Source: Puniceicoccaceae bacterium
Lineage (GTDB): Bacteria > Verrucomicrobiota > Verrucomicrobiia > Opitutales > Oceanipulchritudinaceae
DNA: 64,000 bases
Direction: 5' to 3'
NCBI GenBank assembly: GCA_040830765.1
Contig: JBFOMH010000004.1
Coordinates: forward strand, 224,001-288,000
In this document: positions 42,072-59,073 of the stretch, piece by piece
Numbering within the stretch: position 1 is the first letter of the stretch
Layout of the letters: every line of letters begins with the position of its first letter
Translations under genes and position numbers: made by a program
The notes under the pieces: generated by a model
The model's input: the letters and a program-made list of their open reading frames with translations, nothing else
What the model was told of the DNA's origin: nothing
Databases searched by the model: none

Positions 42072-43461
42072 TTCCAGCGATTACCCCCGCGTGATTTATG
42101 TGATAACGAGCATGCTGCTGTGTAACTTGGCCTTTGCCGGACCGTCTGCGATAGGCATCCGGGAGGAAAAGGTGATGGGGCAGGCTGAAAAACAGGGGCT
42201 GCGGCTGGCGAACAGCGTCCTGGGGAACAACCGGGAGCGGTTTGTCAACTACACGACGGAAGCGGGCGTCTGGCGGACGCAGAGTGACGGGACGTGGACG
42301 AGTGGCTTTGTTCCCGGGATGTTCTGGTACCTGTGGGCCCTGACGGGTGAATCCAGCTGGCGGGACAAGGCGATGCACTGGACCGAGGGGACGCGTTCCC
42401 GGGCGACAGCAACGGACAATGATACCGGATTCCAGATCTATTGTAGCTTTGGGCTGGGATACATGTTTGATGAGACCCTGCGCAGCGACTATGGTGCTGT
42501 GATGCGCCAGGGAGCCAAGACGCTGGTTGACGAGCGGTATAACGCGACGATTGGCTGTTTCCGGTCCTGGGACCAGAACACCAGCAATCCGACCTCCCTG
42601 CCATTTGAGGTCAATATTGATCAGATGATGAATCTGGAACTGATCCTCTGGGCAGGACAGAACGGAGGCCCGGCCGGGTATGTCGACTATGCGGTCAGTC
42701 ATGCTGACAAGACCTGGGAACACAATGTCCGGGAAGATGGAGGAACTTACCATGTGGTGGCCTACAACCTGGATGGAACGGTGGATTACAAACGAACCCA
42801 TCAGGGATGGACAACCGACTCGACCTGGTCGCGTGGCCAGGCATGGGCCGTCTACGGGTACACCATGGTCTACCGCTACACAGGCCTGCCGCGAATGCTG
42901 GAACGGGCGAGAATTTGTTATGATTTCTTCATCAATGAAACCCTGAAGGACGATTTCAACTACGTTCCTTACTCTGACTTTGACGCCCCGCTGGACAGCC
43001 GGAATCCGCGGGATACCTCTGCAGCGGCAATTGTCGCTGCAGCGGCCATCGAGCTATTTGAGATAACCGGGGAAAAGGCGTTTCTGACGGATGCGGAAGC
43101 GATTATGGAGCACCTATCCTCGCCGCGTTACTTCAGCATTGGGACCAATTACCAGTCCCTCCTGCTGGCGGCATCGGAAAAGTGGGGCCGCGGGGAAGTC
43201 GGAGCGATTTTCGCCGATTATTACTTCCTGGAGACCCTTTGGCGCTGGAACGGGCTGGAGAGGGAACCAGGCGTGGTCACCGGCTCCTGGGGCGGTTATG
43301 ACATGCTCGACTGGCGGTTTGTTGACACAGGCAGCTGGATGGGTTGGTTAAGTGCCTCGGCAGATCCTTATGTTTACAATTACAAGATAGAAGGGTGGAT
43401 GTATGCCTACCCGGGAACGCAGTCTGTAACCGGCGGCTGGTTCTATCGTTACAATCCCTAA
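42067..43461 (+). CDS. Secreted glycoside hydrolase family 88 (unsaturated uronyl hydrolase) with a Trp/Tyr-rich C-terminal tail
   Basis: Signal peptide; WTSGFVPG, DNDTGF, IDQMMNL, R.DGGTYH, THQG, WSRGQAW, DTSAAAI, ADYYFLE. Confidence 0.88.
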   Translation: MNSSDYPRVIYVITSMLLCNLAFAGPSAIGIREEKVMGQAEKQGLRLANSVLGNNRERFVNYTTEAGVWRTQSDGTWTSGFVPGMFWYLWALTGESSWRDKAMHWTEGTRSRATATDNDTGFQIYCSFGLGYMFDETLRSDYGAVMRQGAKTLVDERYNATIGCFRSWDQNTSNPTSLPFEVNIDQMMNLELILWAGQNGGPAGYVDYAVSHADKTWEHNVREDGGTYHVVAYNLDGTVDYKRTHQGWTTDSTWSRGQAWAVYGYTMVYRYTGLPRMLERARICYDFFINETLKDDFNYVPYSDFDAPLDSRNPRDTSAAAIVAAAAIELFEITGEKAFLTDAEAIMEHLSSPRYFSIGTNYQSLLLAASEKWGRGEVGAIFADYYFLETLWRWNGLEREPGVVTGSWGGYDMLDWRFVDTGSWMGWLSASADPYVYNYKIEGWMYAYPGTQSVTGGWFYRYNP

Positions 43462-43483
43462 CTCCTGAAAAGAAAGTCAATAT

Positions 43484-44503
43484 ATGAGAAATGAATCCAA
43501 AATTTGTGTCGTTTTAGACGACTGGGAAAAGGCCAGTTTTACGCCGCCTGCTGTTTTGGAAGAACTGGGCAGCATCAGTCAAAATGTCACCTTTGCAGAA
43601 GGGAAGCAGTTCCCGGATGGAGCGGGATGGCTGGACTGGCTGAAGGCGGAAAAGCCGGAAATCCTGATCAGCGGCTGGATGACACCGGGGCTGCCGGAAA
43701 ATACGCTCGAAGAAGTACCTGAGCTCAAATACGTCTGCCACCTTGTCGGATCGATCAAAAACACGATTCCCGAAAAGCTGATCCAGGACGGCCTTATTGT
43801 TACCAATTGGGGTAATTCGGTTTCCCGGACGATCGCTGAAAGTGCCCTCATGCTGGCCATCGCAGGTCTCCGCCGGGTGTCCTACTGGACGATGGAGATG
43901 CATACCCGGGGCGGTTGGAAGGAGCGAACCTCTGTCGTCACGGGGTCCGTTTTCGGCCGCAAGGTCGGGTTGCATGGATTCGGGGCCATTTCCCAGGAAT
44001 TGCGCAAGCTGCTGGTTCCGTTTGAGGTCCCGGTCATGACCTATTCACCAAGCGTCCCCGACAGTATCCTGGAGGAGAAGAACGTGCAACGGGCCAATTC
44101 CCTGGAGGAGCTTTTTTCCTCCAATGATGTCATTGTCGAACTGGCGGCCCTGACGGAAAAGAACCGCGGCATCGTCACCGAGGAGCTCCTGCGGATGATT
44201 CCGGAGGGAGGCGTCTTCGTCAATGTGGGACGGGGTGCGGTTGTTGATGAAGAGGCTTTGGCACGGATCGCCGAGGAAGGGAAGATCCAGGTCGCACTTG
44301 ATGTCTACGGGGAGGAACCCCTTCCATTGGATTCCCCCTTCAGGAAGCTGGACCAGGTCCTGACCCAGCCGCACCTTGGCGGTCCCACCGTCGATCGCCG
44401 CCAGGATGCATCTTGGTATGGATTGGCCAACATTCGCCGCTACCTCAACGGCGAGGAGTTGCAAAGCCAGATTACGGCTGAAGTCAGTAAACGGATTACT
44501 TAG
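43484..44503 (+). CDS. D-isomer-specific 2-hydroxyacid dehydrogenase family protein
   Basis: GLHGFGAIS Rossmann motif; NVGRGAVVDE, LDVYGEEP and PHLGG give the Arg/Glu/His triad. Confidence 0.9.
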   Translation: MRNESKICVVLDDWEKASFTPPAVLEELGSISQNVTFAEGKQFPDGAGWLDWLKAEKPEILISGWMTPGLPENTLEEVPELKYVCHLVGSIKNTIPEKLIQDGLIVTNWGNSVSRTIAESALMLAIAGLRRVSYWTMEMHTRGGWKERTSVVTGSVFGRKVGLHGFGAISQELRKLLVPFEVPVMTYSPSVPDSILEEKNVQRANSLEELFSSNDVIVELAALTEKNRGIVTEELLRMIPEGGVFVNVGRGAVVDEEALARIAEEGKIQVALDVYGEEPLPLDSPFRKLDQVLTQPHLGGPTVDRRQDASWYGLANIRRYLNGEELQSQITAEVSKRIT

Positions 44504-44558
44504 TTTACGGCATTCGTTACACCCGTCCGGAACGCCGGGCATGTTTAAAGGAAGACCG

Positions 44559-46661
44559 ATGAAGCGTATCCAAATCTTAAGTACAATCTTTGCCTGTGCC
44601 CTGGGTGGTACCATGGTGTCCGGTCATTCGGATCCCCGCCATCTGGTCCCGGATGAGGCACCACGGACCTGGATCCTGCACGGGCAGCAGGCGGCCTTTG
44701 CTGAATTCAGCCAGGGAGAAGGCGCAGCCTATTTTGAAACCATCAAGGCCGACCTTGATGCATACTGGATGGATTGGTCGTTTCCGGACGAGCCGGCGAC
44801 CTACGGGGATCCAGAACCAAGCAAGCGCACCAGTGAGATGGTTGACAAATGGCGGGCGATGCAGGACCTCACGGGGCAGGTGACAGGAGTTGCTGAAGCA
44901 GCGACACTGGTCTGGCTGGTCACGGGGGAAACAGTGTACCTTGAAAAGGCCCGTGACTTCCTCCTTGGGGCCACAAGCTGGGATCCCCTGGGCTCAACAG
45001 GCATCGATTACAACGATGAGGCACACTTCCGGTTATTCAGAAAACTTCCCCAAATCTACGACCAATTGCGGCCCTACCTGACAGCAGAGGAAAAACAGCA
45101 GGTTCTCGAACATCTAAGCATCCGGGGCAACCGCAACATGGCTTCCATCCTCGAGCGTGGAGTTGCAGAGGTGAAGCGGAACTCGGTCGAGAAATCCCCA
45201 CCCAGTCATTCGGTGCGCTTTATGCCGATGACGGGGCATGCGGCCCTGGCCCTCTGGGACGACCTGCCGGAGGCCCGGGATTGGTTTGATTTCGTCTACC
45301 ACTGGTACCGCGATGTCTTCACGCCCTGGGGTGGGGACGATGGTGGATGGGCTGAGGGACCGGCCTACTGGAGGGGTGTTTATGAGCATGCTGTTTTCCA
45401 GGATGCTCTCCTGGCAATCGGCGATTCGCTGGCCTACAACCAGCCATTCTGGCGCAACACGGGCTATTTTCAGGTTTATTTCGTCCAGCCTTATCCGACA
45501 ACCGGTTTCGGGGACCTCTCCAACGGGGGGCAGTTCAACATGGAGCCGGGGGTGAAACACTTTCTCGACCACTTGGCCCGTGTTAATGGCGATGGTCATC
45601 TCATTGCCTACACCCAAAATTATGAGGATGCGCGACCCTTGCCAAGGAACATGGGAATGAAGGTTCTCTACCGGGCTTATCCGGTGGCGGCAGAATATTG
45701 GGTCCGCGAATTTATTGCTTCAGACCGTCCGATGCCGGAACCAGCCTCCCTGACGGATATTCCCGGCTCCCGGCATTTCCGGGGAATTGGCTGGGTTGCC
45801 ATGCACAGTGCCCTTGGGCAGCCGGAGGAGGACATCATGCTCGCCTTCAAGAGCAGCCTTTATGGATCCTTCAGCCACAGTCATGGCGACCAGAATTCCT
45901 TTATCCTCAATGCCTATGGGGAGCAATTGGCGATTAACTCCGGATACCGGGAGTATCACCGGTCCCAGATGCACAAGTACTACACCCGTCACACCGTGTC
46001 GAAGAACAACATTCTCATCAGTCGCCGCGGTCAGGAAGTGCAGGACAAGACGGCAACCGGGCGGATAAGTCGGTTTGAGACGGGAGATCGATACGTCTGG
46101 ACCACCGGGGATGCGACGGTGGCCTTCAATACCATGCAGGCCCGCGACGACGAGGTGAGGCAGGCTCTCAGGGATATCGTCTTTGTCGATAACCGGTACT
46201 TTATCATTCGTGACCACGTTCGTTTGCGCTCTCCCGGGCGCATCGACTGGCTTCTCCATGCACGTGGTCCGTTCCGCCATGATGAGACCAGCGGATCCAT
46301 GCTTATCGAGCAAAATGGAGTCTATCTCCATGGCCGGCTGCATTCCATGCATAGCGGATTGCAGATGAAGGCATGGACTGGATTCGAGATCGAGCCGGAT
46401 CCGAAGTACAAGGACCCTGTCTTCATCAAGACTCAAGCCTACCTGCGGGAACCCGCTGTTGATCAGGCCCACTTCCAGGCGAACACAAAGCAAGACAAGG
46501 ATGAGCACATCGTTTTCGCCATTCTATGGCCCTCGCGGTCCATGGAAGACGGGGCCGCACTGGAGATTGTCCCTGTCGACGCTGAGACAATCGAGGTCAT
46601 CCGTCCCGACGGTAAAACCGACCGAATCGTCCTTAACGGGGACAGCCTGAGGATTGACTAA
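44559..46661 (+). CDS. PL15-type exo-oligoalginate lyase (heparinase II/III-like C-terminal domain) with predicted signal peptide
   Basis: YNDEAHFR, SHSVR, PWGGDDGGWAEGPAYW, FGD, GWVAMHS, FKSS.YGS.SHSHGDQN match motifs I recall for Atu3025/A1-IV-type PL15 enzymes. Confidence 0.82.
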   Translation: MKRIQILSTIFACALGGTMVSGHSDPRHLVPDEAPRTWILHGQQAAFAEFSQGEGAAYFETIKADLDAYWMDWSFPDEPATYGDPEPSKRTSEMVDKWRAMQDLTGQVTGVAEAATLVWLVTGETVYLEKARDFLLGATSWDPLGSTGIDYNDEAHFRLFRKLPQIYDQLRPYLTAEEKQQVLEHLSIRGNRNMASILERGVAEVKRNSVEKSPPSHSVRFMPMTGHAALALWDDLPEARDWFDFVYHWYRDVFTPWGGDDGGWAEGPAYWRGVYEHAVFQDALLAIGDSLAYNQPFWRNTGYFQVYFVQPYPTTGFGDLSNGGQFNMEPGVKHFLDHLARVNGDGHLIAYTQNYEDARPLPRNMGMKVLYRAYPVAAEYWVREFIASDRPMPEPASLTDIPGSRHFRGIGWVAMHSALGQPEEDIMLAFKSSLYGSFSHSHGDQNSFILNAYGEQLAINSGYREYHRSQMHKYYTRHTVSKNNILISRRGQEVQDKTATGRISRFETGDRYVWTTGDATVAFNTMQARDDEVRQALRDIVFVDNRYFIIRDHVRLRSPGRIDWLLHARGPFRHDETSGSMLIEQNGVYLHGRLHSMHSGLQMKAWTGFEIEPDPKYKDPVFIKTQAYLREPAVDQAHFQANTKQDKDEHIVFAILWPSRSMEDGAALEIVPVDAETIEVIRPDGKTDRIVLNGDSLRID

Positions 46662-46673
46662 GCAATCTGAGCC

Positions 46674-47498
46674 CTACCACCAGCCCAGCTCACGGGCCCG
46701 TTTCAATGCTTCCTCAAGAGGGGCCAGATACGGGTGCCACTGGCGCTCCCACTCCAGGCTTACCATACCGGCAAAGTCTTCCGCGCACAGCAGTTGCAGG
46801 GTTCCCGGTAAGTCGAATTCACCCTCGCCCAGCTGAACATAGGTGAAGGGATGGCGTGCCGAGGGTTCGCTGATGCTGTCCTTGATGTGGATGTGTCGGG
46901 TGTAGGGCTTAACCACTTCCCAGGTCACGGGCACCGCATCGCCCGCTTTTTTCCAGGTGTGGTGGGTGTCCCAGATGATAGGTACCGGCTCCTCGAGAGA
47001 GTCCTGCAGCTGTTGCATGGCAACCCTCGATACGAGGCAGTCATGGGTCTCGATGCCAATGTCGGTCGCCCATCCGTAGGTCCGCTTCTGATCACGCCAC
47101 CAACTGATGGTGTCCAGGGCCGCCTCGTGTGCCTCCGCGGGGAGTTCCTCCCCAACGCTTCCTCCGTCGAATACCCGAATCAGCGGAACCTTTGTCCCCT
47201 CGGCCCACTCCACAAATTCAAGGAATGCCTCCCGATCCTCGGGCTTGTTTCCAACTAATTTCAAGGACGCGTTCAGGGCCGTCAGGGATACGCCTTCCCC
47301 TTCCAGAAAGCGGGCCAGGTTATCCGGGCTTCCGTATTGTTCCTGGAATAATCCCGGCAGGTCCACCCGCCCTTCAAGGGTTCTTAAATCCAAATATTGC
47401 AGGTCAAACCGTTTCGCCAATGCCACCACCTCCGGAAGGCTCATCTCCGGGCAGCCCAGAGTCGAAAAGGTCCACTTCAAATCCTTCGTTTCTTTCAT
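46674..47498 (-). CDS. Sugar phosphate isomerase/epimerase (xylose isomerase-like TIM barrel)
   Basis: FSTLGCP, IRVF, IETHD, IWDTHH, HIHIKD, GEG, SLEWERQWHP metal-binding motifs. Confidence 0.85.
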   Translation of the reverse strand: MKETKDLKWTFSTLGCPEMSLPEVVALAKRFDLQYLDLRTLEGRVDLPGLFQEQYGSPDNLARFLEGEGVSLTALNASLKLVGNKPEDREAFLEFVEWAEGTKVPLIRVFDGGSVGEELPAEAHEAALDTISWWRDQKRTYGWATDIGIETHDCLVSRVAMQQLQDSLEEPVPIIWDTHHTWKKAGDAVPVTWEVVKPYTRHIHIKDSISEPSARHPFTYVQLGEGEFDLPGTLQLLCAEDFAGMVSLEWERQWHPYLAPLEEALKRARELGWW

Positions 47499-47505
47499 CT
47501 TTTCG

Positions 47506-47519
47506 TTAATAATTATGAA
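47506..47519. promoter_or_regulatory. Putative operator copy 2 (TTAATAATTATGAA) in the divergent promoter between the isomerase and the SDR
   Basis: Core ATAATTAT at 47509-47516; the 14-mer is identical to copy 4. Confidence 0.7.
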
Positions 47520-47577
47520 TTTTATGTTGCCTGAATCGGGTAGGGAGGCAAGTTAATTTGCCAAGAGAGGAAAGACC

Positions 47578-48342
47578 ATGGGAGACTTAAAAGGAAAACG
47601 GGCCCTCGTGACCGCAGGCGGTCAGGGCATTGGACTGGCGATCAGCGAGGAGTTGGCAAAAGCGGGCTGTGATGTCTGCATCCACTATTTCAGTAGCGCT
47701 GTGGAGGTCAATGATCTGCATCGCGACTGGGGCCTTGACGCGGAGCAGAAATTAGCGGCCTTTCAGGCGGATTTGTGCAGTGAAGCGGAAGCGACTGAAC
47801 TGGTCGGGAAGACGGTTGAACGGCTTGGCGGACTGGATATATTGATCAACAACGCTGGTTCACTGGTGGAACGCCGACTTCTCGGACAAGTCGATGAGGA
47901 TATTTATCGTCAGGTAATGGACCTGAACCTTGCTTCCATGGCCTGGGTTACCCGCGAGGCGGCTTCCCATCTAAAGGCGGCAGGGGAGGCCAGTATCGTC
48001 AACCTTGCCTCCCTGGCAGGCCGCAAAGGGGGGCACCCCGGATCCTTGCTCTACTCCACCGCGAAGGGAGCTGTGCTGACTTGGACCCGTGCTTTGGCCA
48101 CTGAGCTGGCTCCGGACGGAATCCGCGTCAATGCCGTTGCCCCGGGCTTGATTCTGGGCACCAGTTTTCATGCCACGCACACGACCCGTGAGTCTGCTGA
48201 GGCCACGATCCAGGGAATTCCTCTTGGCCGCGCCGGCAATCCGGGGGACGTTGCCCGGGCGGTCCGTTTCTTTGCCTCCGAGTATGATGGGTTTACCACC
48301 GGCGCCACCCTCGACATCAATGGCGGCGTCTATTCCGCTTGA
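47578..48342 (+). CDS. SDR oxidoreductase, probable 4-deoxy-L-erythro-5-hexoseulose uronate (DEH) reductase
   Basis: TAGGQGIG, IHYFSS, NNAGSLV, ASLAGRKGGHPGSLLYSTAKG, PGLILGTSFH and GATLDINGG closely match flavobacterial DEH reductases as I recall them; alginate-lyase context agrees. Confidence 0.8.
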   Translation: MGDLKGKRALVTAGGQGIGLAISEELAKAGCDVCIHYFSSAVEVNDLHRDWGLDAEQKLAAFQADLCSEAEATELVGKTVERLGGLDILINNAGSLVERRLLGQVDEDIYRQVMDLNLASMAWVTREAASHLKAAGEASIVNLASLAGRKGGHPGSLLYSTAKGAVLTWTRALATELAPDGIRVNAVAPGLILGTSFHATHTTRESAEATIQGIPLGRAGNPGDVARAVRFFASEYDGFTTGATLDINGGVYSA

Positions 48343-48384
48343 TCCTCGCCTCCTGTCCACTGCCGGCAAAATTATTAGAAATCC

Positions 48385-48398
48385 ATAATAATTATTAT
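48385..48398. promoter_or_regulatory. Putative operator copy 3 (ATAATAATTATTAT, perfect palindrome) upstream of the LacI-type regulator
   Basis: Perfect 14-bp palindrome; a weaker half-site AAAATTATTAG lies at 48368-48378. Confidence 0.7.
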
Positions 48399-48467
48399 AT
48401 TGTCAGGCGAAGTTTCTTTCTTAAAAGAAAGGAAATGCACGGAAAAATTTCTTAACGAGGCAGTGGA

Positions 48468-49550
48468 ATGGCCAAAAAGATATCACAAATTCAGATAGCC
48501 AAGGAGTTGGGGGTTTCCCAGTCCCTGGTTTCCATCGTTCTCAATGGGCGCAAGGAGGGGATTGCCCCGGCCACCTACGAGCGCATCTGGGATTATGCAC
48601 GGGAGCATGGTTATTCGCCAAAAGGCATGAAGATGCCGCTGGACTCAGGGATGGGAGACAGTTCCATGAAAGCGGTGGGTTACTTTCTCCGGGCCCCATT
48701 GAGGCTGGCCAACAAGAGTAATTTCTTCAGCCACGTGGCCCAGGGTCTGCATGATTACCTGAGAGGGCAGAATGTGAACATGGTCTTCCTTGGATCGGAA
48801 GCAGACATTTTCCCGGACGAATTACGGACTCCCAGTTGGCAGAAAATGCCGCTGGCCGGGATTGTCATCATGGGCGAAGTCCAGCCGGACTTTCTCAGTG
48901 CGGTCCGCGAGATGAACCGGCCGCTGGTCTACCTGAGCGCGCGTAGCCCGGGATTTTGCCACTCTGTCAATGCCAACGAATACCAGGCCGCTGAGGACCT
49001 GGTAGACCACCTGTATGAATTAGGCCACCGCCACTTTGCCTTCCTCGGCGGAATGTGTGCCAAGATGCGCAATGATGAGCGCCTTGCTGGCTTGCGCAGG
49101 GCCCTCGCGCGCCACGACCTGGAGCTGCCCGAGTCCGCCGTCCTGACTCTCGATGATGCGGAAAGGAAGCAGGGCTACCAAATGGTGGGAATGCTCCTCG
49201 AAAATCCGCCCGACCCCTTCCCGACAGCCATGGTCTGTGTCAATGGGCTTCTCGCCAGGGGCGTCCTCGGGCGCCTCTTTGAGGAAGGACTCAAGGTGGG
49301 GAAGGATATTAGCGTGGTCGCCTTTGATAATACGCGGGTCTGCTCCGAGGAGTTGCCTGGAATTACCAGCGCCTCCTCCATGCCGGAGGAACTGGGCCGT
49401 GAGTCCGGCCGGATTCTCCTCGACCCCAATCTCCACGGCGGGGATTCCCTCCTTGATGTCGTTCTCCCGTCCAAGTTTTTCCTCCGGGAAAGTTCAGGAC
49501 CCACTTCCTCCCCCGCAAAACAACTCCAATCGCTTCTCGCAGGAAGCTGA
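48468..49550 (+). CDS. LacI-family transcriptional regulator
   Basis: HTH ISQIQIAKELGVSQSLVSIVLNG; LYELGHRHFAFL, PTAMVC.N, DISVVAFDN, C-terminal RESS. Confidence 0.92.
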   Translation: MAKKISQIQIAKELGVSQSLVSIVLNGRKEGIAPATYERIWDYAREHGYSPKGMKMPLDSGMGDSSMKAVGYFLRAPLRLANKSNFFSHVAQGLHDYLRGQNVNMVFLGSEADIFPDELRTPSWQKMPLAGIVIMGEVQPDFLSAVREMNRPLVYLSARSPGFCHSVNANEYQAAEDLVDHLYELGHRHFAFLGGMCAKMRNDERLAGLRRALARHDLELPESAVLTLDDAERKQGYQMVGMLLENPPDPFPTAMVCVNGLLARGVLGRLFEEGLKVGKDISVVAFDNTRVCSEELPGITSASSMPEELGRESGRILLDPNLHGGDSLLDVVLPSKFFLRESSGPTSSPAKQLQSLLAGS

Positions 49551-49734: not shown

Positions 49735-49787
49735 ACCGCTTATCTAATAACTCTCCCGTTTAACTAGCTGAAAATCACCTTATCCCC

Positions 49788-52700
49788 ATGAAGCGACACG
49801 TCTGTACACGAACCCTGATAACCTTTTCCGCTCTCCTTGGCGGGAGCATTTTGTTCGGACAAGAGAACCAGTCGAATGATAATTCGCTGGTCTTTGAGTT
49901 GTCCCCGTTCGAAGTCTCGACTGACCGGGACGTCGGCTATCTTTCGACCAACTCCACTTCGGGGACCAGCTTGAACATCGCCATCAAGGATCTCCCGATG
50001 GCCATTCAGGTGGTCAACCAGGAGCTCATTGGTGACCTGCAGGCCTCCACGCTTAATGAGGCCCTTGATTACACAGCTGGGGTTTTCTCGAGCAGTACAG
50101 CCGCCAGCAGTGCGGTCACCCGCGGAGGTCCAACCGGTAATGACCGCTCCATTTCCTCAGCCAGTGGCGGAAGATTCTCCAACCGCCTCTTCATCCGTGG
50201 CGTGGCGACCCCTTACCAGAACCGGGATGGTTTCCGCAACGGCGGGCTTGTTATTACTCCAAACAGCGCCATTGCATTGGGGGGACTACTGGATTCGGTC
50301 AACATGGACCGTATTGAAGTTGTCCGCGGACCGAACTCCCTCCTCTATGGGGTCGGTGTGCTGACCGGTATCGCCAATGTGATTGCCAAGAAGCCGCTTT
50401 CCGAAAACCGCTTTCAGGTGGGAACAACAGTGGGCAGCTTCAATCAGCTGAGGGGAACCGCTGACATTACCGGCCCGCTGAATGCTGAATGGATTCCGGG
50501 TGAGTTGAACTGGAGGATTGCCGGAGCCGCGGAGGCCCGGGACGGGTATGTTGATTACACCGCATCGGAAACCCGGTATTGGGTTGCCCAACTGGATTAC
50601 CATCCGACCAAGTGGATGTCCGTTTTTCTTGAATACCAGAGTGGTTATGATGAACGGCAGGGAATCGGTGGCCGTTGGATCCTTGATTCGGCAGGCAAGA
50701 ACACCGAATTCCGCAATGAGTTTGATGAGCCCTACAACTGGGCCCGGCGCAAGGGTGAGATCGAGGGTCTCCGTCCAATCCTTGCCGATACCTACGACAC
50801 CAATGTGAACTACATCGTGCGCGGCACGACCGAGGATTCCGGCGCTGGCTGGAAACTGGGTGATGAGACGTTCGTCGGGGGTGGATTTAACGAGAAAACG
50901 TACCGGATCAGTGGACCGGACACCTTTGCCGAGCGCGACGAGGATAATATTCTCATCGACCTGACGCTGCGGCCCCTCGAAAACCTCACCGTTACGGCTG
51001 GTGCATTTTTGACAAGCCAGGAAACCGAAGAGTTGAATGTCAACATGAGCACCACGGGCTCAACCCCGCAGGCCCTGATTACGGAAATCACCTCGGATGC
51101 GCAATTTAACGCACTCTACGAGAGCAATGGTATCTATGGGATCAAAATGCCCGCGATTGTCCAGGATTACTTCGGTCTGCAAACCGAAATCAACCAGGAC
51201 ACCCATCCCGGGGACTGGGTGGTTCCCAATACGACGGATGACCTGAAGTACGTTCAGTATTATTGGGACCGGGAAATCGTTCGCGCAGATAGTGAACAGT
51301 ACCGGATCCGTGCCGTGTACGATTTCGAGCATGAACTGTTCGGTTCGACCGTCGAGCATACGCTCCTTGCCGGTTTCTCCTACATTGAGGATGACGTGGA
51401 CTTTCCGGATGGCAACCTGACCACTTCCAATGCCCGTGCGAAACGCGACACTTATACCGTCCGGGACGAGAATGGAGAAATCGTCCTCGATGACAATGGC
51501 GATCCGGTCATTGCTGAATCCGAGTATACCAGTGTCATCTCCAACTACCCGGGTGGCATTCCGGATCTTCCCAACGGAGTCAGCAACCAGTATGCCCGGG
51601 ATTTCGATGCCCTGCATTACCGGTCAATAGCTGACTTCAGCCCCATCCGGCTAGGGGACTCACCAGTCGCCAGGGCTGGGGACATCTACCTGAACCAGGT
51701 CATCAAGCAGGAGGGCAAGTATTTCATCTATCAGGGCAAGTTCCTTAACGACCGCCTTAACATCGTCTTCGGGCTCCGTGAAGACAGCTACAATGCCCGC
51801 CAGTTCACCTATGACCGTGTTGGTGTTGACAAGGACTACCTGCTGGAAGCCGCTTTGAATTCGGTCATTTTCACATCCCGCAACAGTGCCGGAGGCGCGG
51901 CCATTCCGGCTGATGCGCCTGGATTCAGCGATCAGGCCACGAAGGAAGAGGTGCTCAATTCCATCTCCTCCACCGGCAAGGGAATTCCCAGTGATGTCCA
52001 GGCTGAGTTTGATGCCTGGGATCCTGCCGACAACGGCGGCCAGCTGAATCCGTACGGATTTACCGTGGCCCAGAACAATGTCTTTGCTGATTACATGAGC
52101 ATTGGCACACGTGGCGGCGGTTACATTACCAGCTTTTACTCCAGCAACATCGAAGGGGAGAACAGTGGTTTCTTTGGCCTCTCCAACCGTGGCGGTGATC
52201 CAGGAGAGACTTTCGGTGCTCTACCCGATACGACCATTAATATTTTCGAGGAGGATGTTAAGGCCACCAGCGGAACGTTCGGTGTCAGCTATGCGGTCAC
52301 GGATAACTTCTCCGTTTATGGCGTTTATTCCGAAGGCATCAGTCCGAATACCGCCCTTCGAGACGGCTCCGGTGAAATTATCCCGGCTGAGCGGGCCGAA
52401 AACAAGGAGTTCGGCATCAAGTTCGATATCGAGGACACTCCGGTTGGTCGCTTCTCCGGCAGCGTGGCAGTCTATGAAATTGATCGGTACAATGGGATCT
52501 GGAACATGCCCATTGCCCCGTCTCCAGCCAGCTGGATGGACGCCGGCACGAGCCAGAACCGGGTCCGCTGGGGCACCCCAACGTATGATCCGAACGCCCC
52601 GACGGTTTATAACATCAAGGCTGAATATCTGAATGAGTACCTTGGAGAGGTCTACAATCTGGATCCTGACAGTCTGAACCTGATCTCCCAGAGCGGAGTA

Positions 52701-53987
52701 GGGCTGGTTCAACAAGTCGAGCTGGATGAACTACCGGATGATCTGACCCGCCGCGAAAAACAACTTCTGCGCCGGGAAATCAGCCAAACGGCGATTATTC
52801 CTGCCGAATATGCTCAGGATCGTATCTCCGGGAACGACTTTGGCGGGGCGATTTCCACCCAGACCGCCATCATGACCGCCAGTGGCCTCGACGAGCTGTT
52901 TGAAGTCACCCTCTACAGCACGGAGGAACAGGCATTTGTCACCAAGCAGATCAGTCCCTTTGGCCCCATTTATGCAGCGTTTATGAACCGGGAACTGGAC
53001 CCCACCAAGAATCCTCTGATTCTGCCATTTACCCCGATTGACTATCGCCCCAACCGGCAAACCCAGCCCAATCCGTGGAACAATCCGGGAATTCGCAATG
53101 GTGCCTTGGTCGTTTTTGATGAGACTATCACCGGCTATGAATTGGAACTGTTCTGGACGCTGAACGAAAACCTCCAGTTCATTTTCGCCTACAGCCATAC
53201 CGAGCGGGAAGCTCTTGATGATTTCCAGTACTCGGATTACGAATCGATTGTCGGAACGGAGATCAATGGCTTTATTGCTCCCTTTGGCGAGATATACCGT
53301 GAGTATGGCTGGGAGAATGCCGGTTACCAATTGGCCTGGGTGGACCATGATGCCTATGCCCCGCTTCGGGATGCCGGCGACGGCACAGTCACTTTGGATG
53401 ATCTGGGTGCTGCCGTTGTGGAAGTGGTTCCCAGTGAACAAGTTGATGAAACGATTTCTGTGAGTGAAATGGCCTCCCGCAATGCCCAAGGCCAAATCCC
53501 GCTCTTTGTTGATCAGAACGGAGCCATCGTTGACCGGAACAACTTGCCGCGGCCGTCCGATTACAGCAATTCCATCGACGGCGTCAGCCTGAACTTCAAT
53601 CCGGAAGATGAGGTTACGGCCCGATTCCGCTACAAGTTCACCGAGTCCAAGCTGGACGGCCTTGCCATCACCGGCGGGGTCAAGTACACAGGTCCTTCCA
53701 AAACGAGTGTCTTGTTCCGCTCACAGAGTCCGCTCAACGAATTGACCTTTACACCGGAGGCATCTGACCACGTTGTCTTCGACATTGGGGCCTCCTATGA
53801 CTGGGTCTGGGATAATATTCGATTCCGCTTGCGCGTGAATATCTACAACCTTTTCGATGATACCTACGACGTGACCACGACCACCCTGTCGACGCCCAAT
53901 CCGATCACGGGGCAGAAAATCACCCGCAGGACCGAACGTTTCTACACACCAACCACTTGGAGGATCGGTTTGTCCGCCTCCTTCTAA
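49788..53987 (+). CDS. TonB-dependent outer-membrane receptor (1399 aa, large loop insertions)
   Basis: Signal peptide; FELSPFEVSTDRDVGY..T..TSGT; plug motif DRIEVVRGPNSLLYG; C-terminal NIYNLFD and terminal beta-strand ending in Phe (WRIGLSASF). Confidence 0.92.
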   Translation: MKRHVCTRTLITFSALLGGSILFGQENQSNDNSLVFELSPFEVSTDRDVGYLSTNSTSGTSLNIAIKDLPMAIQVVNQELIGDLQASTLNEALDYTAGVFSSSTAASSAVTRGGPTGNDRSISSASGGRFSNRLFIRGVATPYQNRDGFRNGGLVITPNSAIALGGLLDSVNMDRIEVVRGPNSLLYGVGVLTGIANVIAKKPLSENRFQVGTTVGSFNQLRGTADITGPLNAEWIPGELNWRIAGAAEARDGYVDYTASETRYWVAQLDYHPTKWMSVFLEYQSGYDERQGIGGRWILDSAGKNTEFRNEFDEPYNWARRKGEIEGLRPILADTYDTNVNYIVRGTTEDSGAGWKLGDETFVGGGFNEKTYRISGPDTFAERDEDNILIDLTLRPLENLTVTAGAFLTSQETEELNVNMSTTGSTPQALITEITSDAQFNALYESNGIYGIKMPAIVQDYFGLQTEINQDTHPGDWVVPNTTDDLKYVQYYWDREIVRADSEQYRIRAVYDFEHELFGSTVEHTLLAGFSYIEDDVDFPDGNLTTSNARAKRDTYTVRDENGEIVLDDNGDPVIAESEYTSVISNYPGGIPDLPNGVSNQYARDFDALHYRSIADFSPIRLGDSPVARAGDIYLNQVIKQEGKYFIYQGKFLNDRLNIVFGLREDSYNARQFTYDRVGVDKDYLLEAALNSVIFTSRNSAGGAAIPADAPGFSDQATKEEVLNSISSTGKGIPSDVQAEFDAWDPADNGGQLNPYGFTVAQNNVFADYMSIGTRGGGYITSFYSSNIEGENSGFFGLSNRGGDPGETFGALPDTTINIFEEDVKATSGTFGVSYAVTDNFSVYGVYSEGISPNTALRDGSGEIIPAERAENKEFGIKFDIEDTPVGRFSGSVAVYEIDRYNGIWNMPIAPSPASWMDAGTSQNRVRWGTPTYDPNAPTVYNIKAEYLNEYLGEVYNLDPDSLNLISQSGVGLVQQVELDELPDDLTRREKQLLRREISQTAIIPAEYAQDRISGNDFGGAISTQTAIMTASGLDELFEVTLYSTEEQAFVTKQISPFGPIYAAFMNRELDPTKNPLILPFTPIDYRPNRQTQPNPWNNPGIRNGALVVFDETITGYELELFWTLNENLQFIFAYSHTEREALDDFQYSDYESIVGTEINGFIAPFGEIYREYGWENAGYQLAWVDHDAYAPLRDAGDGTVTLDDLGAAVVEVVPSEQVDETISVSEMASRNAQGQIPLFVDQNGAIVDRNNLPRPSDYSNSIDGVSLNFNPEDEVTARFRYKFTESKLDGLAITGGVKYTGPSKTSVLFRSQSPLNELTFTPEASDHVVFDIGASYDWVWDNIRFRLRVNIYNLFDDTYDVTTTTLSTPNPITGQKITRRTERFYTPTTWRIGLSASF

Positions 53988-54036
53988 TGGCTGTACATAG
54001 TCTAACCATCAAATGAACCCAAAACAAATAAAGAGT

Positions 54037-55038
54037 ATGAATAAGAAAACCCTAATCCTCACCCTTTCCCTGGGTGTTGCGGTCTCCTCGCTGAGTTTCG
54101 GTGAGTGGGCCCTCGTTAATGATTTCAATGAAGCTGCCGATTTGGACAGCGTCATGGATCAGACTAATCAGGAAGGTTCCAATGCCCGCACCGAGCTGGT
54201 GGATGGCAAGTTGGCTGCTTTCCCGGGTGTTGCCCTCGAAAACACTTCCAACCTCTTCGCCGGTGTCGACCTCGGTGTCGACCTCCGTGCTGCTTCAGAA
54301 GCTGCTGAAGGCCCGATCACGCTTTACTTCCAGCTAATCCAACCGACTGTTTCGGATGGTGCTGGCGGGACCCGCAAGGCGATTCTTGATACCGTTTTCG
54401 GTCTGACCCACTTCGATCCCGAACAGTGGACCACCGAAACCTACAATTCCTACAATGCCATGGGCCGGATCAACTTCGGCAATGACAATCTCGAAGTTCG
54501 CGATGGTGGCTCCTATGTAGCGAGCGGCGAAATCCTCCAGGCTGACGTGGTTTACGAACTCTGGCTGGACGTCGACTTCTTCTTCAATGAAGTCCAGATG
54601 TACGTCAAGGGTGGCCAGTGGACGGAGCGCACCATGCTGCTCGGCACAGACGGCAACGAATTCCTCGGCTTCCGTAAGGTTCCGGGCTTCGAAGTTGACG
54701 GTACCACCCCGCAGACGGTCGATTACTTCCTCATCGCCCTCAGCCGCGGTAACCTCGCTGCTGAAAAGGGTCAGGACCCGACCTACTTCGACAACATCTA
54801 TGTTGACACCACTGGTGTGAACGCCACATCCCCGGTTGGCGATGGTGGCGGTTTCGGCATGTGGGGCCCCTGGGAAATCATCGATGAAGCTGGCAACGTC
54901 GATACCGGCGCTTGGATGGGCTTCGTCAATGTCGCTGCCGACCCCTGGATCTACAGCTATAGCCTCGACCAGTGGCTCTATGTTGATTCCAATGGTATCT
55001 CTTCCAGTGGCAGCTGGGTCTACGTCTTCAACTACTAA
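54037..55038 (+). CDS. Secreted acidic protein (lectin-like beta-sandwich candidate) with a Trp/Tyr-rich C-terminal tail; TBDR partner
   Basis: Signal peptide MNKKTLILTLSLGVAVSSLSFG with no lipobox Cys; domain bracketed by NDFNE...YFDNIYV; Gly linker, then aromatic tail. Alternative ATG at 54013. Confidence 0.75.
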   Translation: MNKKTLILTLSLGVAVSSLSFGEWALVNDFNEAADLDSVMDQTNQEGSNARTELVDGKLAAFPGVALENTSNLFAGVDLGVDLRAASEAAEGPITLYFQLIQPTVSDGAGGTRKAILDTVFGLTHFDPEQWTTETYNSYNAMGRINFGNDNLEVRDGGSYVASGEILQADVVYELWLDVDFFFNEVQMYVKGGQWTERTMLLGTDGNEFLGFRKVPGFEVDGTTPQTVDYFLIALSRGNLAAEKGQDPTYFDNIYVDTTGVNATSPVGDGGGFGMWGPWEIIDEAGNVDTGAWMGFVNVAADPWIYSYSLDQWLYVDSNGISSSGSWVYVFNY

Positions 55039-55064
55039 GACCTGAAGCGTTTTATACCTTCTTC

Positions 55065-55101
55065 AAGGCGGCTCCGCGAGGAGCCGCCTTTTTCTTTGTT
55101 T
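55065..55101 (+). terminator. Rho-independent terminator after the TBDR-partner pair
   Basis: AAGGCGGCTCC-GCGA-GGAGCCGCCTT (11-bp perfect stem, GNRA loop) followed by TTTCTTTGTTT. Confidence 0.9.
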
Positions 55102-55138
55102 CAACCAGTTCCCAGGCACAAATTCCCTTGCCATGGCC

Positions 55139-55160
55139 GGAATTGATAATTATTAATTCC
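55139..55160. promoter_or_regulatory. Putative operator copy 5 (GGAATTGATAATTATTAATTCC), 4 nt upstream of the PL6 start codon
   Basis: 22-bp near-perfect palindrome (one mismatched pair) with core ATAATTAT at 55146-55153; TTGCCA at 55128-55133. Confidence 0.7.
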
Positions 55161-55164
55161 AGCC

Positions 55165-58100
55165 ATGAAAACGTCTAACCCTACCCATCCGCTGTCTTCC
55201 CCAAAGGCACATTTGAAAGTCGTCTGGATAACTATCATAAGCCTGATGGTTGCCCATGCGGGACTTGGCCAGGGAGTGCTCCTGGAATCGGACTTCGAGA
55301 GCGACACCGCTGGTGCTCAGCCGGCGGGCAACTGGACATTCTCGCCTTCCAGCAATACAGCTGACAATGGGAGTGTTGTTGTCGACGGGACAACTACGCC
55401 ATCCAATCCGCTGACTGGAAAGAGCCTTTACGTGTACGACTTGACCAGTGGCTCCAGTACGCGTGTATACCAGAATCTCAACGACGGGGTAAATGTCTCT
55501 GCGGCCCGGGTATCCTTTGACTTCCAGCGCATGTTCGAGGATGCCAATCCCGATACCCGCGTCCACTTCACGATTGGCCAGGTCAATGCCAGCCTCAACA
55601 ACTCGGACTTTCGCCTGTTTGAGGTCCGGATGATGAACAACGGGGACTTCCGGGTGGAGTACTCCCGGGACGGCATGGGTGGAGACCGCGGTTCAGCGGT
55701 CGTGGCCTCTTACGATACGGCCAACCCGAACACGCTGGTCCTCTTCATCAATTCCCATGGAACGGAGACGGTTGACTACGATGACGGCAGCCTATCCGGC
55801 TCCCTGGCCCCGAACATGATGGATGTCTACCTAAACGGTATATCCATCGGCAGCTACTTGACCCTGAAGACGCCGGATCCGGAGGGAGCCCCGCTAGTTG
55901 ATTTCTGGGCCAGTGATGCCGATCTTGGGCAGGTCATGTTCTACCAGGACACGTCGCGGCAAGGTGGGATTGTCTTTGATAACATCGTGGTGACCGAGCT
56001 CGCCGTTGGTGGTAGTGGCGGCGGGCCTGTTGATCCGATTCTCTACATCGACAACTTTGACTTTGAATCCGAGACAGTCGGCCAGCAGCCGGTGATGCCC
56101 TTCCCGGCGAGTTTTTCACCCGGCTCCAACTCATCGACCAACGGTTTTGTCGTCGTTGATGCAACCTCCGATCCGGCCAATCCGATGGATACCGGCAAGG
56201 CGCTCTATGCCTACGATTTCCATGGGGACCTTTCGACCGGAACATCCTCCCGCATGCAGTTTGATTTTGCTCCCACGAACACGGATAATGTCCGGGTAGA
56301 TTTCGACTTCCAGCGGATGTATGCCGTGGCCGTCGAGGATGAGGATACCCGGATACACGTAACCGTGTGTCCCGCTGGAACCTCCACCAACAATTCCGAC
56401 TTTCGACCGTTCGAAATACGGATTTTGAACAACGGTTCCCTCGTCGTGAATTACAATCCCACAGGTGCCCTGGAAGATGGGCGCGAATCCGAAGTGGTCG
56501 CATCCTACGACATTACCGGGTCCAACCGCCTCACCTTCCTTGCCAATGGCAACAACGGGGATGCGCTGCCCTATGATGATCCGGAACTGGGGATGGGGGA
56601 AGTCCCCGCCAATGCGATGGTCCTTTTCCTGAACAACATCAAGGTTGGCGAGTATGGATTTATCAATACACCCGATCCAGCAGCTGCCGCCCAGATAGTT
56701 TTCTTTGAAACAACACAGGAGCTGGGACGATTCGGCATTTACCAGGACAGCAAGCGCCAGGGGGGAATCGTCTTTGACAACCTTTCCATCCAGGAATTTG
56801 CCAAGCTCGGGGCACCCCTTGCCCCGAGCGACCTCTCGGCAACTGCCACCGGACCCGAATCGATTAACCTCATGTGGACGGATAATTCGGACAACGAAAC
56901 CGGATTTGTCGTCGAAATGCTTGCCGATGCTGAATGGATGGAAGTGGAAGCCATTGCCGCGGATTCGACATCCTACGACGTCACCGGCCTTTCCCCGGAA
57001 ACAGAATACACTTTCCGGGTCCGGTCGACCAACGGAACGCTCTCGGAGCCGAGTAATGAGGCAATCGCTACAACTGAGCAGCAGCTGACGCCACTCATCC
57101 AGACGGATCCCCAGGGAGACCTGCTGCCGTCCGGATCCGCCACGACCCTGGCGGTTGTGGCAACCGGGCCAGGTAACCTTGAGTACCAATGGTATGTCGG
57201 CCAGAGCGGGGTGACGACCGATCCGATCGCCGGGGCCACAGAATCCACTTACACGACACCTGAGCTCACGGCGACAACCGACTATTGGGTCCGGGTGACG
57301 AATACCAATGGCTCTGCTGACTCTGTAACCGCAACCATCGAGGTGTTTGAACCGCGGACGATCCGGATCGTCTCGATTGACCAGCTGAATCTGCTCCTGC
57401 CGGATGCCTTGCCGGGGGACACCTATGTCATTGACGCTGGCACCTATCCGAATACGCAAATCAGCTTTGCCCCGATGGGGACACCCAATGCCCCTGTCAC
57501 GCTCAAGGCGGAGCGTCCCGGTGAAGTTATCTTCACCGGCAATTCCTACATCCGGGTCGGCGGGGACTGGAACATCGTCGAGGGCTTCCTTCTCACCGAT
57601 GGTTGGAACCAGAGTCTCGACCAGGCGATCAGCTTCCGTACCAGTTCGCGCCAAGCCACCAACAGCCGGGTCACGAACTGCGCCATTATCGACTACAGTC
57701 CACCCAATCCGGCCACGGATACGGACTGGGTCGGCATGTACGGGGTAAACAACCGGTTCGATCACAATCTCCTTTCGGGACACAGCAACAAGGGGGTCAC
57801 CCTGGTCGTCTGGCGCAATCCCGGCAAGGAGGACCACCACATGATCGATCACAACCACTTCCGGTATCGCGGTAATGGCGGTGGAGAGAACGGCTGGGAG
57901 ACCATCCGGATCGGGACCAGCGGCGACTCGCTCAGCTCCTCCTACTGTGTCGTCCAGTACAACCTGTTTGAGGAATGCGACGGGGAAGTGGAGATCATCT
58001 CCAACAAGTCCGGTCATAACATTTATCGTTACAATACCTTCTGGCGCAGCCAGGGAATGCTGACCCTGCGGCATGGCGATAACTGCCTTATTGAGGGGAA

Positions 58101-59073
58101 CATTTTCCTCGGGGAAGGTGTCTCCAACACAGGAGGAATCCGGGTGATTGGAGAAAACCATACCATTATCAATAATTACATCGAAGGAACCACCGGACGG
58201 CAGGACGCGGCCATACCGGTTTATGCCGGTGTGCCCAATTCTCCCCTGAACCGGTACTTCGTGGCCGACAACGCCTACATCGCCCATAACACGATTGTCG
58301 ATGTAATAGGTGCCCACGTTCTCATCGGGGCCGGATTCGGCACCAGCGACAGAACCGTTCTGCCCACCGGCGTGGTTGTGGAAAACAACCTCTTCGCGCA
58401 AAGGAACACCACTTCAAGCACCTACAAGGGCCCCGCCGCCGATGGTGAGGCGGTTCTTGATGCCACTTACTCTGGTAACATTGCCTCCTCGGTCTTCACA
58501 GGACCTCCCGCTTCCGGGATCGATGAAATATCGGTGCCGTTTACCTATGGCTCCTTCGGACTCCTTCGTCCCGAATCTGGCAGTGCGGTTGTAGACGCCG
58601 CGATTGGCTCCACCACCGAGCTTGACCTTGATGGTCAAACCCGGGACGCCAACCCGGATGTTGGAGCGGATGAACTCGTGGAAACACCCGGGGTCAACGA
58701 GGGCGGTCCAATCCAGCCCCTGCAGACCGGACCGGACTGGCGCGAGATGGTTGACACCTCACCGCCATGGGTGGGGCCGGCCTTGCGCGCCGGAAGGGCC
58801 CTCCAGTCATCCTGGTTCGGGACCTTCTACATCGGTGGCAATGACTGGGTCTACCAGCCCACGATTGCCTGGGTCTATGTTGGTGCCATCAGTTCCACCG
58901 ACAGCATGTGGTTCTGGAGTGATGTCCTTCAGTCCTGGACATGGACGAACAAGGATTACTTCCCCATCTTCTACGATGCCACGCGGGAAGCGTGGGTCTA
59001 TTACGTGGCTGCTGCCGGTGGCGGCGCTTACCTCTTCGATTATTCTCAGGGAGCCTGGACCTTTGTCCCTTGA
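55165..59073 (+). CDS. Modular secreted polysaccharide lyase family 6 (alginate lyase/chondroitinase B type): signal peptide, 2 tandem unknown domains, FN3, Ig-like, PL6, aromatic tail
   Basis: PL6 motifs ENGWETIRIGTS, CDGEVEIISNKS, LTLRHG, GGIRVIGENH; FN3 WTDNSDNETGF...YTFRV; Ig YQWY...DYWVRVTN. Confidence 0.9.
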   Translation: MKTSNPTHPLSSPKAHLKVVWITIISLMVAHAGLGQGVLLESDFESDTAGAQPAGNWTFSPSSNTADNGSVVVDGTTTPSNPLTGKSLYVYDLTSGSSTRVYQNLNDGVNVSAARVSFDFQRMFEDANPDTRVHFTIGQVNASLNNSDFRLFEVRMMNNGDFRVEYSRDGMGGDRGSAVVASYDTANPNTLVLFINSHGTETVDYDDGSLSGSLAPNMMDVYLNGISIGSYLTLKTPDPEGAPLVDFWASDADLGQVMFYQDTSRQGGIVFDNIVVTELAVGGSGGGPVDPILYIDNFDFESETVGQQPVMPFPASFSPGSNSSTNGFVVVDATSDPANPMDTGKALYAYDFHGDLSTGTSSRMQFDFAPTNTDNVRVDFDFQRMYAVAVEDEDTRIHVTVCPAGTSTNNSDFRPFEIRILNNGSLVVNYNPTGALEDGRESEVVASYDITGSNRLTFLANGNNGDALPYDDPELGMGEVPANAMVLFLNNIKVGEYGFINTPDPAAAAQIVFFETTQELGRFGIYQDSKRQGGIVFDNLSIQEFAKLGAPLAPSDLSATATGPESINLMWTDNSDNETGFVVEMLADAEWMEVEAIAADSTSYDVTGLSPETEYTFRVRSTNGTLSEPSNEAIATTEQQLTPLIQTDPQGDLLPSGSATTLAVVATGPGNLEYQWYVGQSGVTTDPIAGATESTYTTPELTATTDYWVRVTNTNGSADSVTATIEVFEPRTIRIVSIDQLNLLLPDALPGDTYVIDAGTYPNTQISFAPMGTPNAPVTLKAERPGEVIFTGNSYIRVGGDWNIVEGFLLTDGWNQSLDQAISFRTSSRQATNSRVTNCAIIDYSPPNPATDTDWVGMYGVNNRFDHNLLSGHSNKGVTLVVWRNPGKEDHHMIDHNHFRYRGNGGGENGWETIRIGTSGDSLSSSYCVVQYNLFEECDGEVEIISNKSGHNIYRYNTFWRSQGMLTLRHGDNCLIEGNIFLGEGVSNTGGIRVIGENHTIINNYIEGTTGRQDAAIPVYAGVPNSPLNRYFVADNAYIAHNTIVDVIGAHVLIGAGFGTSDRTVLPTGVVVENNLFAQRNTTSSTYKGPAADGEAVLDATYSGNIASSVFTGPPASGIDEISVPFTYGSFGLLRPESGSAVVDAAIGSTTELDLDGQTRDANPDVGADELVETPGVNEGGPIQPLQTGPDWREMVDTSPPWVGPALRAGRALQSSWFGTFYIGGNDWVYQPTIAWVYVGAISSTDSMWFWSDVLQSWTWTNKDYFPIFYDATREAWVYYVAAAGGGAYLFDYSQGAWTFVP
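55276..56799 (+). repeat. Internal tandem duplication of a roughly 245-aa domain in the PL6 protein (about 55276-56001 and 56040-56799)
   Basis: Shared blocks DFES, FSP.SN...NG.VVVD, NP..GK.LY.YD, FDFQRM, DTR.H, NNSDFR.FE.R..NNG, VVASYD, TPDP, YQD..RQGGIVFDN. Confidence 0.9.

Follow-up and report, generated by a model that had tools for sequence, protein, structure and literature searches.

Why should three exported proteins that are otherwise unrelated, encoded in one locus of a single bacterial genome, all end in a tail crowded with tryptophan and tyrosine? The question is raised by a stretch of 64,000 nucleotides from a Puniceicoccaceae bacterium (assembly GCA_040830765.1, contig JBFOMH010000004.1, positions 224,001 to 288,000 of the forward strand), which we call the window. 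On its plus strand lie the genes of a GH88-like protein of 464 aa (42067..43461), of a 341-aa protein without a family that sits beside a TonB-dependent receptor (54013..55038) and of a PL6 (chondroitinase B-like) lyase of 1302 aa (55165..59073). A sequence-only reading of the window had taken the three tails for one lineage-specific module that tethers proteins to the cell surface, either through a surface glycan or lipid or as a secretion signal. Our analysis indicates that they represent two modules that are related to each other, both all-beta and non-catalytic with many Trp and Tyr residues, borne by about 92 Sec-exported, non-lipoprotein proteins of this genome, and that these modules have spread onto their passengers by domain shuffling, mostly C-terminally. 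We propose, at a probability of roughly one half, that they are noncovalent retention or docking modules that keep their carriers at one common place in the envelope, which is probably its outer surface close to the receptors.

Two related families of modules

The three tails had been quoted exactly, and each closes the long open reading frame (ORF) given above. In the GH88-like protein, the module takes up the last 57 aa before the stop codon (43288..43458, plus strand), and in the 341-aa protein, it takes up the last 58 aa (54862..55035, plus strand). These two tails are homologous: BLASTP found 22 identities in 57 positions, with 68% positives and an E-value of 9e-15, which is far beyond chance and agrees with the alignment made earlier by hand. 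Between the tail of the PL6 lyase and that of the 341-aa protein, BLASTP detected a weak similarity (E 0.001).

To delimit the family, we translated the genome (3.99 Mb in 40 contigs) in six frames into 40,584 stop-to-stop ORFs. A hidden Markov model (HMM) of the two homologous tails matched 52 of these ORFs at E<0.01, and after rebuilding over three rounds, it matched 55 at E<1e-5. We refer to this module as type A; its consensus of 56 residues is WAGYPIDDEGYVDTGSFLGWLNVSADPWVYSYSLGKWIYLPEEVVSESGAWVYIPK. The iterated type A HMM gave no match on the PL6 tail. A jackhmmer search started from that tail led to a second module of approximately 94 aa, type B, which was found in 37 further ORFs after rebuilding. 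In the PL6 lyase itself, the type B module spans approximately 93 aa (58783..59061, plus strand, compared with the 58768-59073 given earlier) and stops three residues short of the stop codon. Domain E-values reached 1e-27 among the 55 and 37 carrier ORFs, and the genome scan gave 1.3e-15 for the tail of the GH88-like protein, 2.6e-21 for that of the 341-aa protein and 1.3e-22 for that of the PL6 lyase. Three of the 92 carriers are encoded in the window.

The two profiles have a common core, WLGW...PW.Y, which was aligned locally by hhalign over 33 columns with a probability of 96% and an E-value of 4.5e-9. A second hhalign comparison, between alignment A1 (type A, with the tail of the 341-aa protein as its first row) and alignment A2 (type B, headed by the PL6 tail), gave 89.6% and E 1.9e-6 over 19 columns. 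The earlier idea of a single module therefore has to give way to two, since the type A HMM misses the PL6 tail, and the description of that tail as a longer variant built from similar units was a fair one in view of the common core.

Short tails of skewed composition can resemble one another by chance or by the compositional bias of low-complexity aromatic sequence. Nothing more than this length and composition speaks for such an explanation here, and it is refuted by the pairwise E-value and by the size of the family in the genome. The 597 database representatives at E<=1e-10, the conservation of the tail in orthologues and the confident fold models described below also stand against it, and we give it practically no weight.

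A wide range of passengers

The modules lie outside described families, as had been expected. Neither Pfam nor NCBIfam, searched at E<=1, placed a family on the three tails or on the tail regions of their proteins, and Pfam placed none on the module region in the 91 other carriers scanned, so that no model of either database covers type A or type B. The ESM Atlas returned only Verrucomicrobiota clusters labelled 'hypothetical protein' and without a Pfam family, and a word-indexed protein search with the tail region returned only three proteins, none of which has a name.

The passengers are diverse. According to Pfam, type A is joined to GH95, GH16 (three proteins), GH10, GH88 (two), PL6, PL1 (two) and sulfatase domains; to two FGE-like and two CAP proteins, a multihaem cytochrome, a GDSL esterase and BNR_4, LRR_5 (two) and RCC1 proteins; and to heparinase II/III-like, DUF4465, GSDH-like and cadherin-like domains. 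Type B is carried by two cyclophilins, two RCC1 proteins, endonuclease I, two EEP nucleases, a subtilase, CotH and fasciclin proteins, a multihaem cytochrome, LRR_5, PQQ-like propeller and BNR_2 proteins, a GH88 protein, a CBM6 protein, LTD proteins and the PL6 lyase of the window. In approximately 40 carriers, Pfam recognises no family. Because GH88, PL6, RCC1, LRR_5 and cytochrome passengers are found with type A and with type B, the two types look interchangeable. Moreover, the module is carried by enzymes for unrelated glycans and by enzymes that do not act on glycans; therefore, its ligand would not be the substrates of the passengers but something common to all of them.

This breadth bears on the view that the tails are a general carbohydrate-binding module (CBM), which would bind an abundant external glycan, such as an algal or particle matrix, and keep the proteins on the food particle. 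The abundance of aromatic residues, with conserved Trp and Tyr, would suit such a role, as would the many carriers that are carbohydrate-active enzymes (CAZymes) in utilisation loci and the tandem copies in some of them. However, the same module sits on xylan, laminarin, pectin, uronate and fucoside enzymes as well as on a cyclophilin, nucleases, a protease and cytochromes; no Pfam CBM model matches it; and several carriers already hold CBM6, CBM9 or CBM96. Where Pfam's CBM models did match carriers (CBM6, CBM9_1, CBM96 and CBM_35_2), the matches sit elsewhere in the protein and never on the module. We consider this explanation improbable.

Position, copy number and export signals

Both types favour the end of the protein. 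In 45 of the 55 type A carriers, the module ends no more than 12 residues from the stop; 6 others have an extra 35-42 residues that repeat the motif of the last strand, 2 hold a tandem pair mid-protein, and in 2, both pectate lyases, the module directly follows the signal peptide. Type B ends within 12 residues of the stop in 33 of 37 carriers and directly follows the signal peptide in the other 4. Over both types, 84 of 92 carriers have the module at or close to the end (no more than 12 residues from the stop in 78, somewhat farther away in 6), leaving 8 in which it is N-terminal or internal. Two full copies are present in six carriers, all of type A. The 150 best database representatives show a similar picture, with the last copy no more than 10 residues from the C-terminus in 131, at 11-60 residues in 10 and N-terminal or internal in 9; two copies occur in 81 of these 150, a list that is skewed towards two-copy proteins, which score higher. 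Hence the C-terminal position claimed earlier stands as a strong tendency, and it does not stand as a strict rule.

A crude heuristic recognised a signal-peptide-like N-terminus in 85 of the 92 carriers (52/55 for type A and 33/37 for type B), and the 7 that failed are short fragments or have doubtful starts. A lipobox-like motif was seen in only four of the 92. The HMM scan that the sequence-only reading had suggested as a check thus found modules that are mostly C-terminal rather than random in position, on proteins that by this heuristic are mostly exported rather than cytoplasmic. Three short ORFs (C5:68295-68504, C21:23917-24336 and C28:2-469) contain little beyond the module and lack a signal peptide; each is most likely a fragment of a gene or was truncated at the end of a contig.

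The ends of the carriers have neither a conserved last residue nor a basic end. A W-x-[YWF] motif falls within the last 12 residues of 51 of the 55 type A carriers, and just 5 of the 55 end in an aromatic residue; there was no sign of a beta-signal like that of outer-membrane proteins or of a fixed last residue. The Gly/Pro linker described earlier ahead of the three tails was not borne out as a general feature: in 70 carriers, the 25 residues preceding the module showed no enrichment (Gly 0.106 versus 0.102; Pro 0.063 versus 0.052). As a separate observation, five carriers (L001, L003, L004, L005 and L051) have a common N-terminal motif directly after the signal peptide (LIAYEGFDY, LIAYDGMDY or VYEGFSDY). 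Four of these carriers bear tandem type A modules, and the motif belongs to an N-terminal domain family that has no Pfam entry.

A terminal bias of this kind invites comparison with a sorting or outer-membrane translocation signal, in which dedicated machinery would read the folded tail, bring the protein through or onto the outer membrane and perhaps then cleave or modify it, as in the T9SS (type IX secretion system), whose C-terminal domains fall into two classes. The position at or near the C-terminus in 84 of 92 carriers and within 10 residues of the end in 131 of 150 database representatives agrees with this idea, as do the two related tail types and the very diverse passengers, and the restriction to one lineage would suit a lineage-specific machine. 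Against it stand the 8 N-terminal or internal modules and the 6 two-copy carriers, the absence of a conserved last residue or basic end, and three secretins in the genome that offer an ordinary exit route. The genome had no match to SlipAM/DUF560 (PF04575) or SprA_N (PF14349), but the controls were equally silent (SprA_N control, 0 of 14 genomes), so this result shows nothing. Because of the N-terminal and internal positions and the two-copy carriers, a binding domain fits better than a position-dependent secretion signal, and we regard the sorting signal as unlikely.

Predicted fold and pairing

AlphaFold2 models built on alignments of the paralogues were confident for both types, as measured by the predicted local distance difference test (pLDDT) and the predicted template modelling score (pTM). 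The type A model, of the tail of the 341-aa protein, is all-beta with a pLDDT of 91.2 and a pTM of 0.74, and the type B model is all-beta with nine strands, a pLDDT of 93.5 and a pTM of 0.81. Structure prediction followed by Foldseek, another check proposed with the sequence-only reading, yielded for neither model a row against PDB at E<=0.001. With VIA-align against 48,161 chains, the best Z for type A was 3.1 (root-mean-square deviation, rmsd, 3.4; 55 residues aligned) and that for type B was 4.1 (LptC; rmsd 3.1, 71 aligned), both within the noise range of the tool. The modules may possibly adopt a new fold in these models, although small domains rarely score a high Z and a weak match does not show a new fold.

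One match in the top rows of both models was the OCRE domain of RBM5/RBM10 (type A: Z 3.1, rmsd 3.2, 50 aligned; type B: Z 3.5, rmsd 3.1, 54 aligned). Like the modules, OCRE is a small, aromatic-rich antiparallel beta-sheet of approximately 55 residues. However, these Z values are in the noise range, OCRE is a eukaryotic nuclear domain, and the two have no sequence relation.

The type A module was predicted to form a homodimer with a score of 0.53, compared with 0.00 for the best of three controls; run 1 scored 0.14. Among proteins whose solved structure is a pair of one chain, 20 of 30 attain 0.53, and among those solved as single chains, 1 of 23 does; this calibration is rough because our own alignment was used. 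The runs agreed in at least 93% of contacts, and the pLDDT of the partner was at least 65. The predicted interface is symmetric (residues 17-20, 32, 34-37 and 47-58) and runs along the last strand (residues 47-58), where Trp52, the only invariant residue of type A, is located. As a model, this prediction supports pairing or binding by type A. If the modules pair in the predicted manner, their C-terminal preference would be explained, since the last strand needs a free edge.

The same prediction could also be read as homotypic docking, in which carriers would pair through the last strand into enzyme assemblies without binding to the envelope, a counterpart of dockerin and cohesin that needs no scaffold. 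The score of 0.53 against 0.00 and the contact agreement are the chief points in favour of such assemblies; tandem copies could pair within one chain, and six carriers have the 35-42 aa extension that repeats the last-strand motif. However, the score is a model confidence obtained with our own type A alignment, and one of the three runs gave 0.14. Homotypic docking would also leave unexplained the joining of enzymes whose substrates are unrelated with nucleases, cytochromes and a protease. We find it distinctly unlikely.

Carriers beside TonB-dependent receptors

Of the 26 TonB-dependent receptor ORFs of the genome, defined as ORFs with a Plug domain, 10 lie no more than 200 bp from a carrier. 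When intervals of the same lengths were placed at random, the mean was 3.1 such receptors, and 2 of 2000 trials reached at least 10. The receptor-adjacent carriers (L048, L091, L082, L090, L022, L004, L003, L012, L032, L055 and L094) lie on contigs C34, C17, C13, C4, C26, C21, C11, C9 and C5. Among the closest receptor neighbours, 7 of 11 have no Pfam domain, and most are 300-460 aa long, similar to the 341-aa protein of the window. These Pfam-less carriers could be candidate glycan-capture partners of the receptors.

When polysaccharides are utilised, endo-enzymes do their work outside the cell; sulfatases are mostly periplasmic and act on imported oligosaccharides. The module follows the same division: it is present in 7 of 18 endo-acting genes (GH16, 3/9; PL6, 2/3; PL1, 2/6) compared with 1 of 52 sulfatase genes (Fisher p 1.8e-4). 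The whole genome has 54 sulfatase matches in approximately 52 ORFs and is that of a typical sulfated-glycan specialist.

These data allow a more specific version of surface retention, which we put forward tentatively: Puniceicoccaceae may have a surface-display system of their own, in which the two tags, on roughly 90 exported proteins in each genome, would be read by a dedicated envelope receptor or machine. Such a system would place endo-enzymes and receptor-partner binding proteins beside the TonB-dependent receptors, and its tags would do what lipid anchors do for the SusD-like and surface glycan-binding proteins of Bacteroidota.

Distribution and prior description

A search of 1.84 billion representative proteins with the type A profile gave 1056 matches at E<=0.001 and 597 at E<=1e-10, which, given the size of the library, makes type A a small family. 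Of 40 relatives, 24 belong to the family of the window, and 21 of these have type A; the other 16 come from other families of the order, and type A was found in none of them. In a sample across the phylum, it was found in 6 of 301 genomes, all from the window's family. Type B was found in 23 of the 24 genomes of the family, in 3 of the 16 from other families of the order and in 9 of the 301. Two genomes of the family that lack type A hold 49 and 37 type B matches. Because of this distribution, type B seems to be the older of the two, and type A seems to have been derived by shortening within the family. The family that bears the modules is probably Puniceicoccaceae, as judged by the nearest named genome. 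The earlier reading was thus right in calling the module lineage-specific; it is not spread across Verrucomicrobiota and is essentially confined to one family.

Orthologues of the GH88-like protein within the family retain the tail down to 47% identity. We searched outside the family for tail-less forms of this protein and found no homologues at E<=1e-20.

The openly available full-text literature that we searched contained no description of the modules, and this includes two papers on marine Verrucomicrobiota (PMC8857213 and PMC13668718). Promiscuous terminal localisation modules on exported proteins are known as a kind; new here are this family, its small size, the predicted strand pairing and the link to TonB-dependent receptors.

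The locus in the window

All three window carriers are housed in a uronate-polysaccharide utilisation locus (42067-59073). It also encodes a 2-hydroxyacid dehydrogenase, a sugar-isomerase-like TIM barrel, a KduD-like short-chain dehydrogenase/reductase and a LacI regulator, together with a DUF4962 and heparinase II/III-like lyase that has no tail. A related-locus search started from one protein returned only three loci.

Pfam backed the labels given earlier to the proteins of this locus. The assignment of the first carrier to GH88 is weak (Glyco_hydro_88, E 1.3e-7, 31.4 bits against a cut-off of 26.6), and that of the third carrier to PL6 is strong (Chondroitinas_B, E 1.5e-80); the lyase also has fn3 (E 7.1e-14) and Ig-like (Ig_7, E 6.3e-7) domains. 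The second carrier, the 341-aa protein, has no Pfam or NCBIfam match, and its closest relative in a named genome belongs to a Puniceicoccaceae metagenome-assembled genome (33% identity). A gap of 53 bp separates its ORF from that of the TonB-dependent receptor directly upstream (49788..53987, plus strand, 1399 aa; Plug, E 9.7e-12; TonB_dep_Rec_b-barrel, E 1.8e-11). Each of the three carriers passed the crude heuristic for a signal peptide, as had been claimed, and the 341-aa protein has no lipobox.

Two further features of these proteins were observed. TonB-dependent receptor ORFs in this genome are often 1000-1400 aa from stop to stop; classical TonB-dependent receptors have approximately 700-800 aa. 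In the PL6 protein, residues ~40-545 (55165-56800) appear by eye to contain two similar unannotated domains of approximately 250 aa, each closing with ...QGGIVFDN(I/L)..., and the N-terminal part of the 341-aa protein closes with a similar ...YFDNIYVD....

Discussion

Overall, we provide a putative account of what the tails do. After export, the module would hold its passenger noncovalently at a common place in the envelope, for which the outer surface close to the TonB-dependent receptors is the likeliest candidate. The holding could come about through an aromatic face that binds a common envelope component, through pairing of the last strand with another copy of the module, or through both. 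In this account, we infer the function (retention), the place (the outer surface) and any ligand. Of the earlier proposal, the lineage-specific module on unrelated exported proteins has been upheld; from sequence, anchoring, docking and sorting are all candidate roles.

Several points weigh against retention at the outer surface. Among the passengers are several kinds of protein whose usual location is the periplasm (cyclophilin, GH88, FGE-like, soluble glucose dehydrogenase-like and cytochrome proteins), and the common place could therefore be the periplasm. The C-terminal bias (84/92) and the two tail types, taken by analogy, recall the cargo of T9SS and thus a sorting signal. The score of the predicted dimer is a model confidence that fell to 0.14 in run 1, and both structural models were built on the paralogues of one genome. 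The enrichment beside receptors may be due in part to utilisation loci, which hold receptors and secreted enzymes alike. Finally, the likeness to choline-binding repeats, considered below, is below significance, with the Pfam model silent and LicD in none of 41 genomes.

Known systems offer partial parallels. The C-terminal domains of T9SS cargo come in types A and B (TIGR04183/PF18962 and TIGR04131). Like our modules, they are small all-beta domains at the C-terminus of scores of unrelated Sec-exported proteins, many of them CAZymes in utilisation loci, and they form two related classes within the range of one lineage. However, the tails described here have no Pfam or NCBIfam match, are not strictly C-terminal, are sometimes in tandem and belong to another phylum, and type A has just 56 aa.

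The choline-binding repeats (CW_binding_1) of pneumococcal LytA, LytB and LytC are themselves noncovalent wall anchors, and they resemble the tails in placing aromatic beta-hairpin units of the form W.Y....W.Y on unrelated exported enzymes. When the A1 profile was compared with PDB sequences, its best match was to the LytB repeats, with an E-value of 0.036 for the whole sequence over four successive stretches, none of which was significant singly; the pattern common to type A and LytB is W.Y....W.Y..(loop)..W. LytC and LytB were also among the non-significant Foldseek rows for type B (E 1.6-1.9), and when the A2 profile was compared with PDB sequences, a designed Kelch protein came first, although none of its stretches passed. 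In contrast to the choline-binding proteins, however, the carriers have one or two modules rather than long arrays and belong to a diderm organism, and the Pfam model of the repeats stayed silent at E<=1. LicD (PF04991), a phosphocholine transferase, was found in none of 41 genomes, including this one, and the control was matched in Lactococcus lactis. Choline is therefore unlikely as the ligand.

Dockerins are likewise short and mostly C-terminal, occasionally N-terminal or internal, and they have a docking role on dozens of secreted enzymes. However, a dockerin is a calcium-binding pair of helices, whereas the tail is all-beta and aromatic, and the passengers of the tail reach far beyond CAZymes. 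No dockerin or cohesin was present among the Pfam matches of the 92 carriers, and no search directed at a scaffold was made.

PEP-CTERM proteins and exosortase provide another parallel, lineage-enriched C-terminal tags on exported proteins that are present in the same genome. A PEP motif, a membrane helix and a basic end are all missing from the tails, and the genome has three exosortase genes and at least 18 PEP-CTERM ORFs (TIGR02595), none of which are carriers, which agrees with the earlier statement that the tail is not PEP-CTERM. Exosortase is present in 36 of 41 relatives, with or without the module. The possibility that the module replaces the PEP-CTERM and exosortase system is ruled out, because the two coexist here and in 23 of the 24 genomes of the family.

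The two modules are domain families suitable for inclusion in Pfam and InterPro, and if the 56-residue module is truly sufficient by itself for retention or pairing, it would make a small display or docking tag. For the organisms themselves, the matter is one of enzyme placement. Puniceicoccaceae are prominent marine degraders of sulfated and uronic algal polysaccharides, and they are not known to have the SusD lipoproteins or the T9SS of Bacteroidota. A tag on approximately 92 exported proteins would provide a direct handle on how their enzymes are placed around the cell: from it, one can predict the enzymes that work at the surface and pick out candidate glycan-capture proteins.

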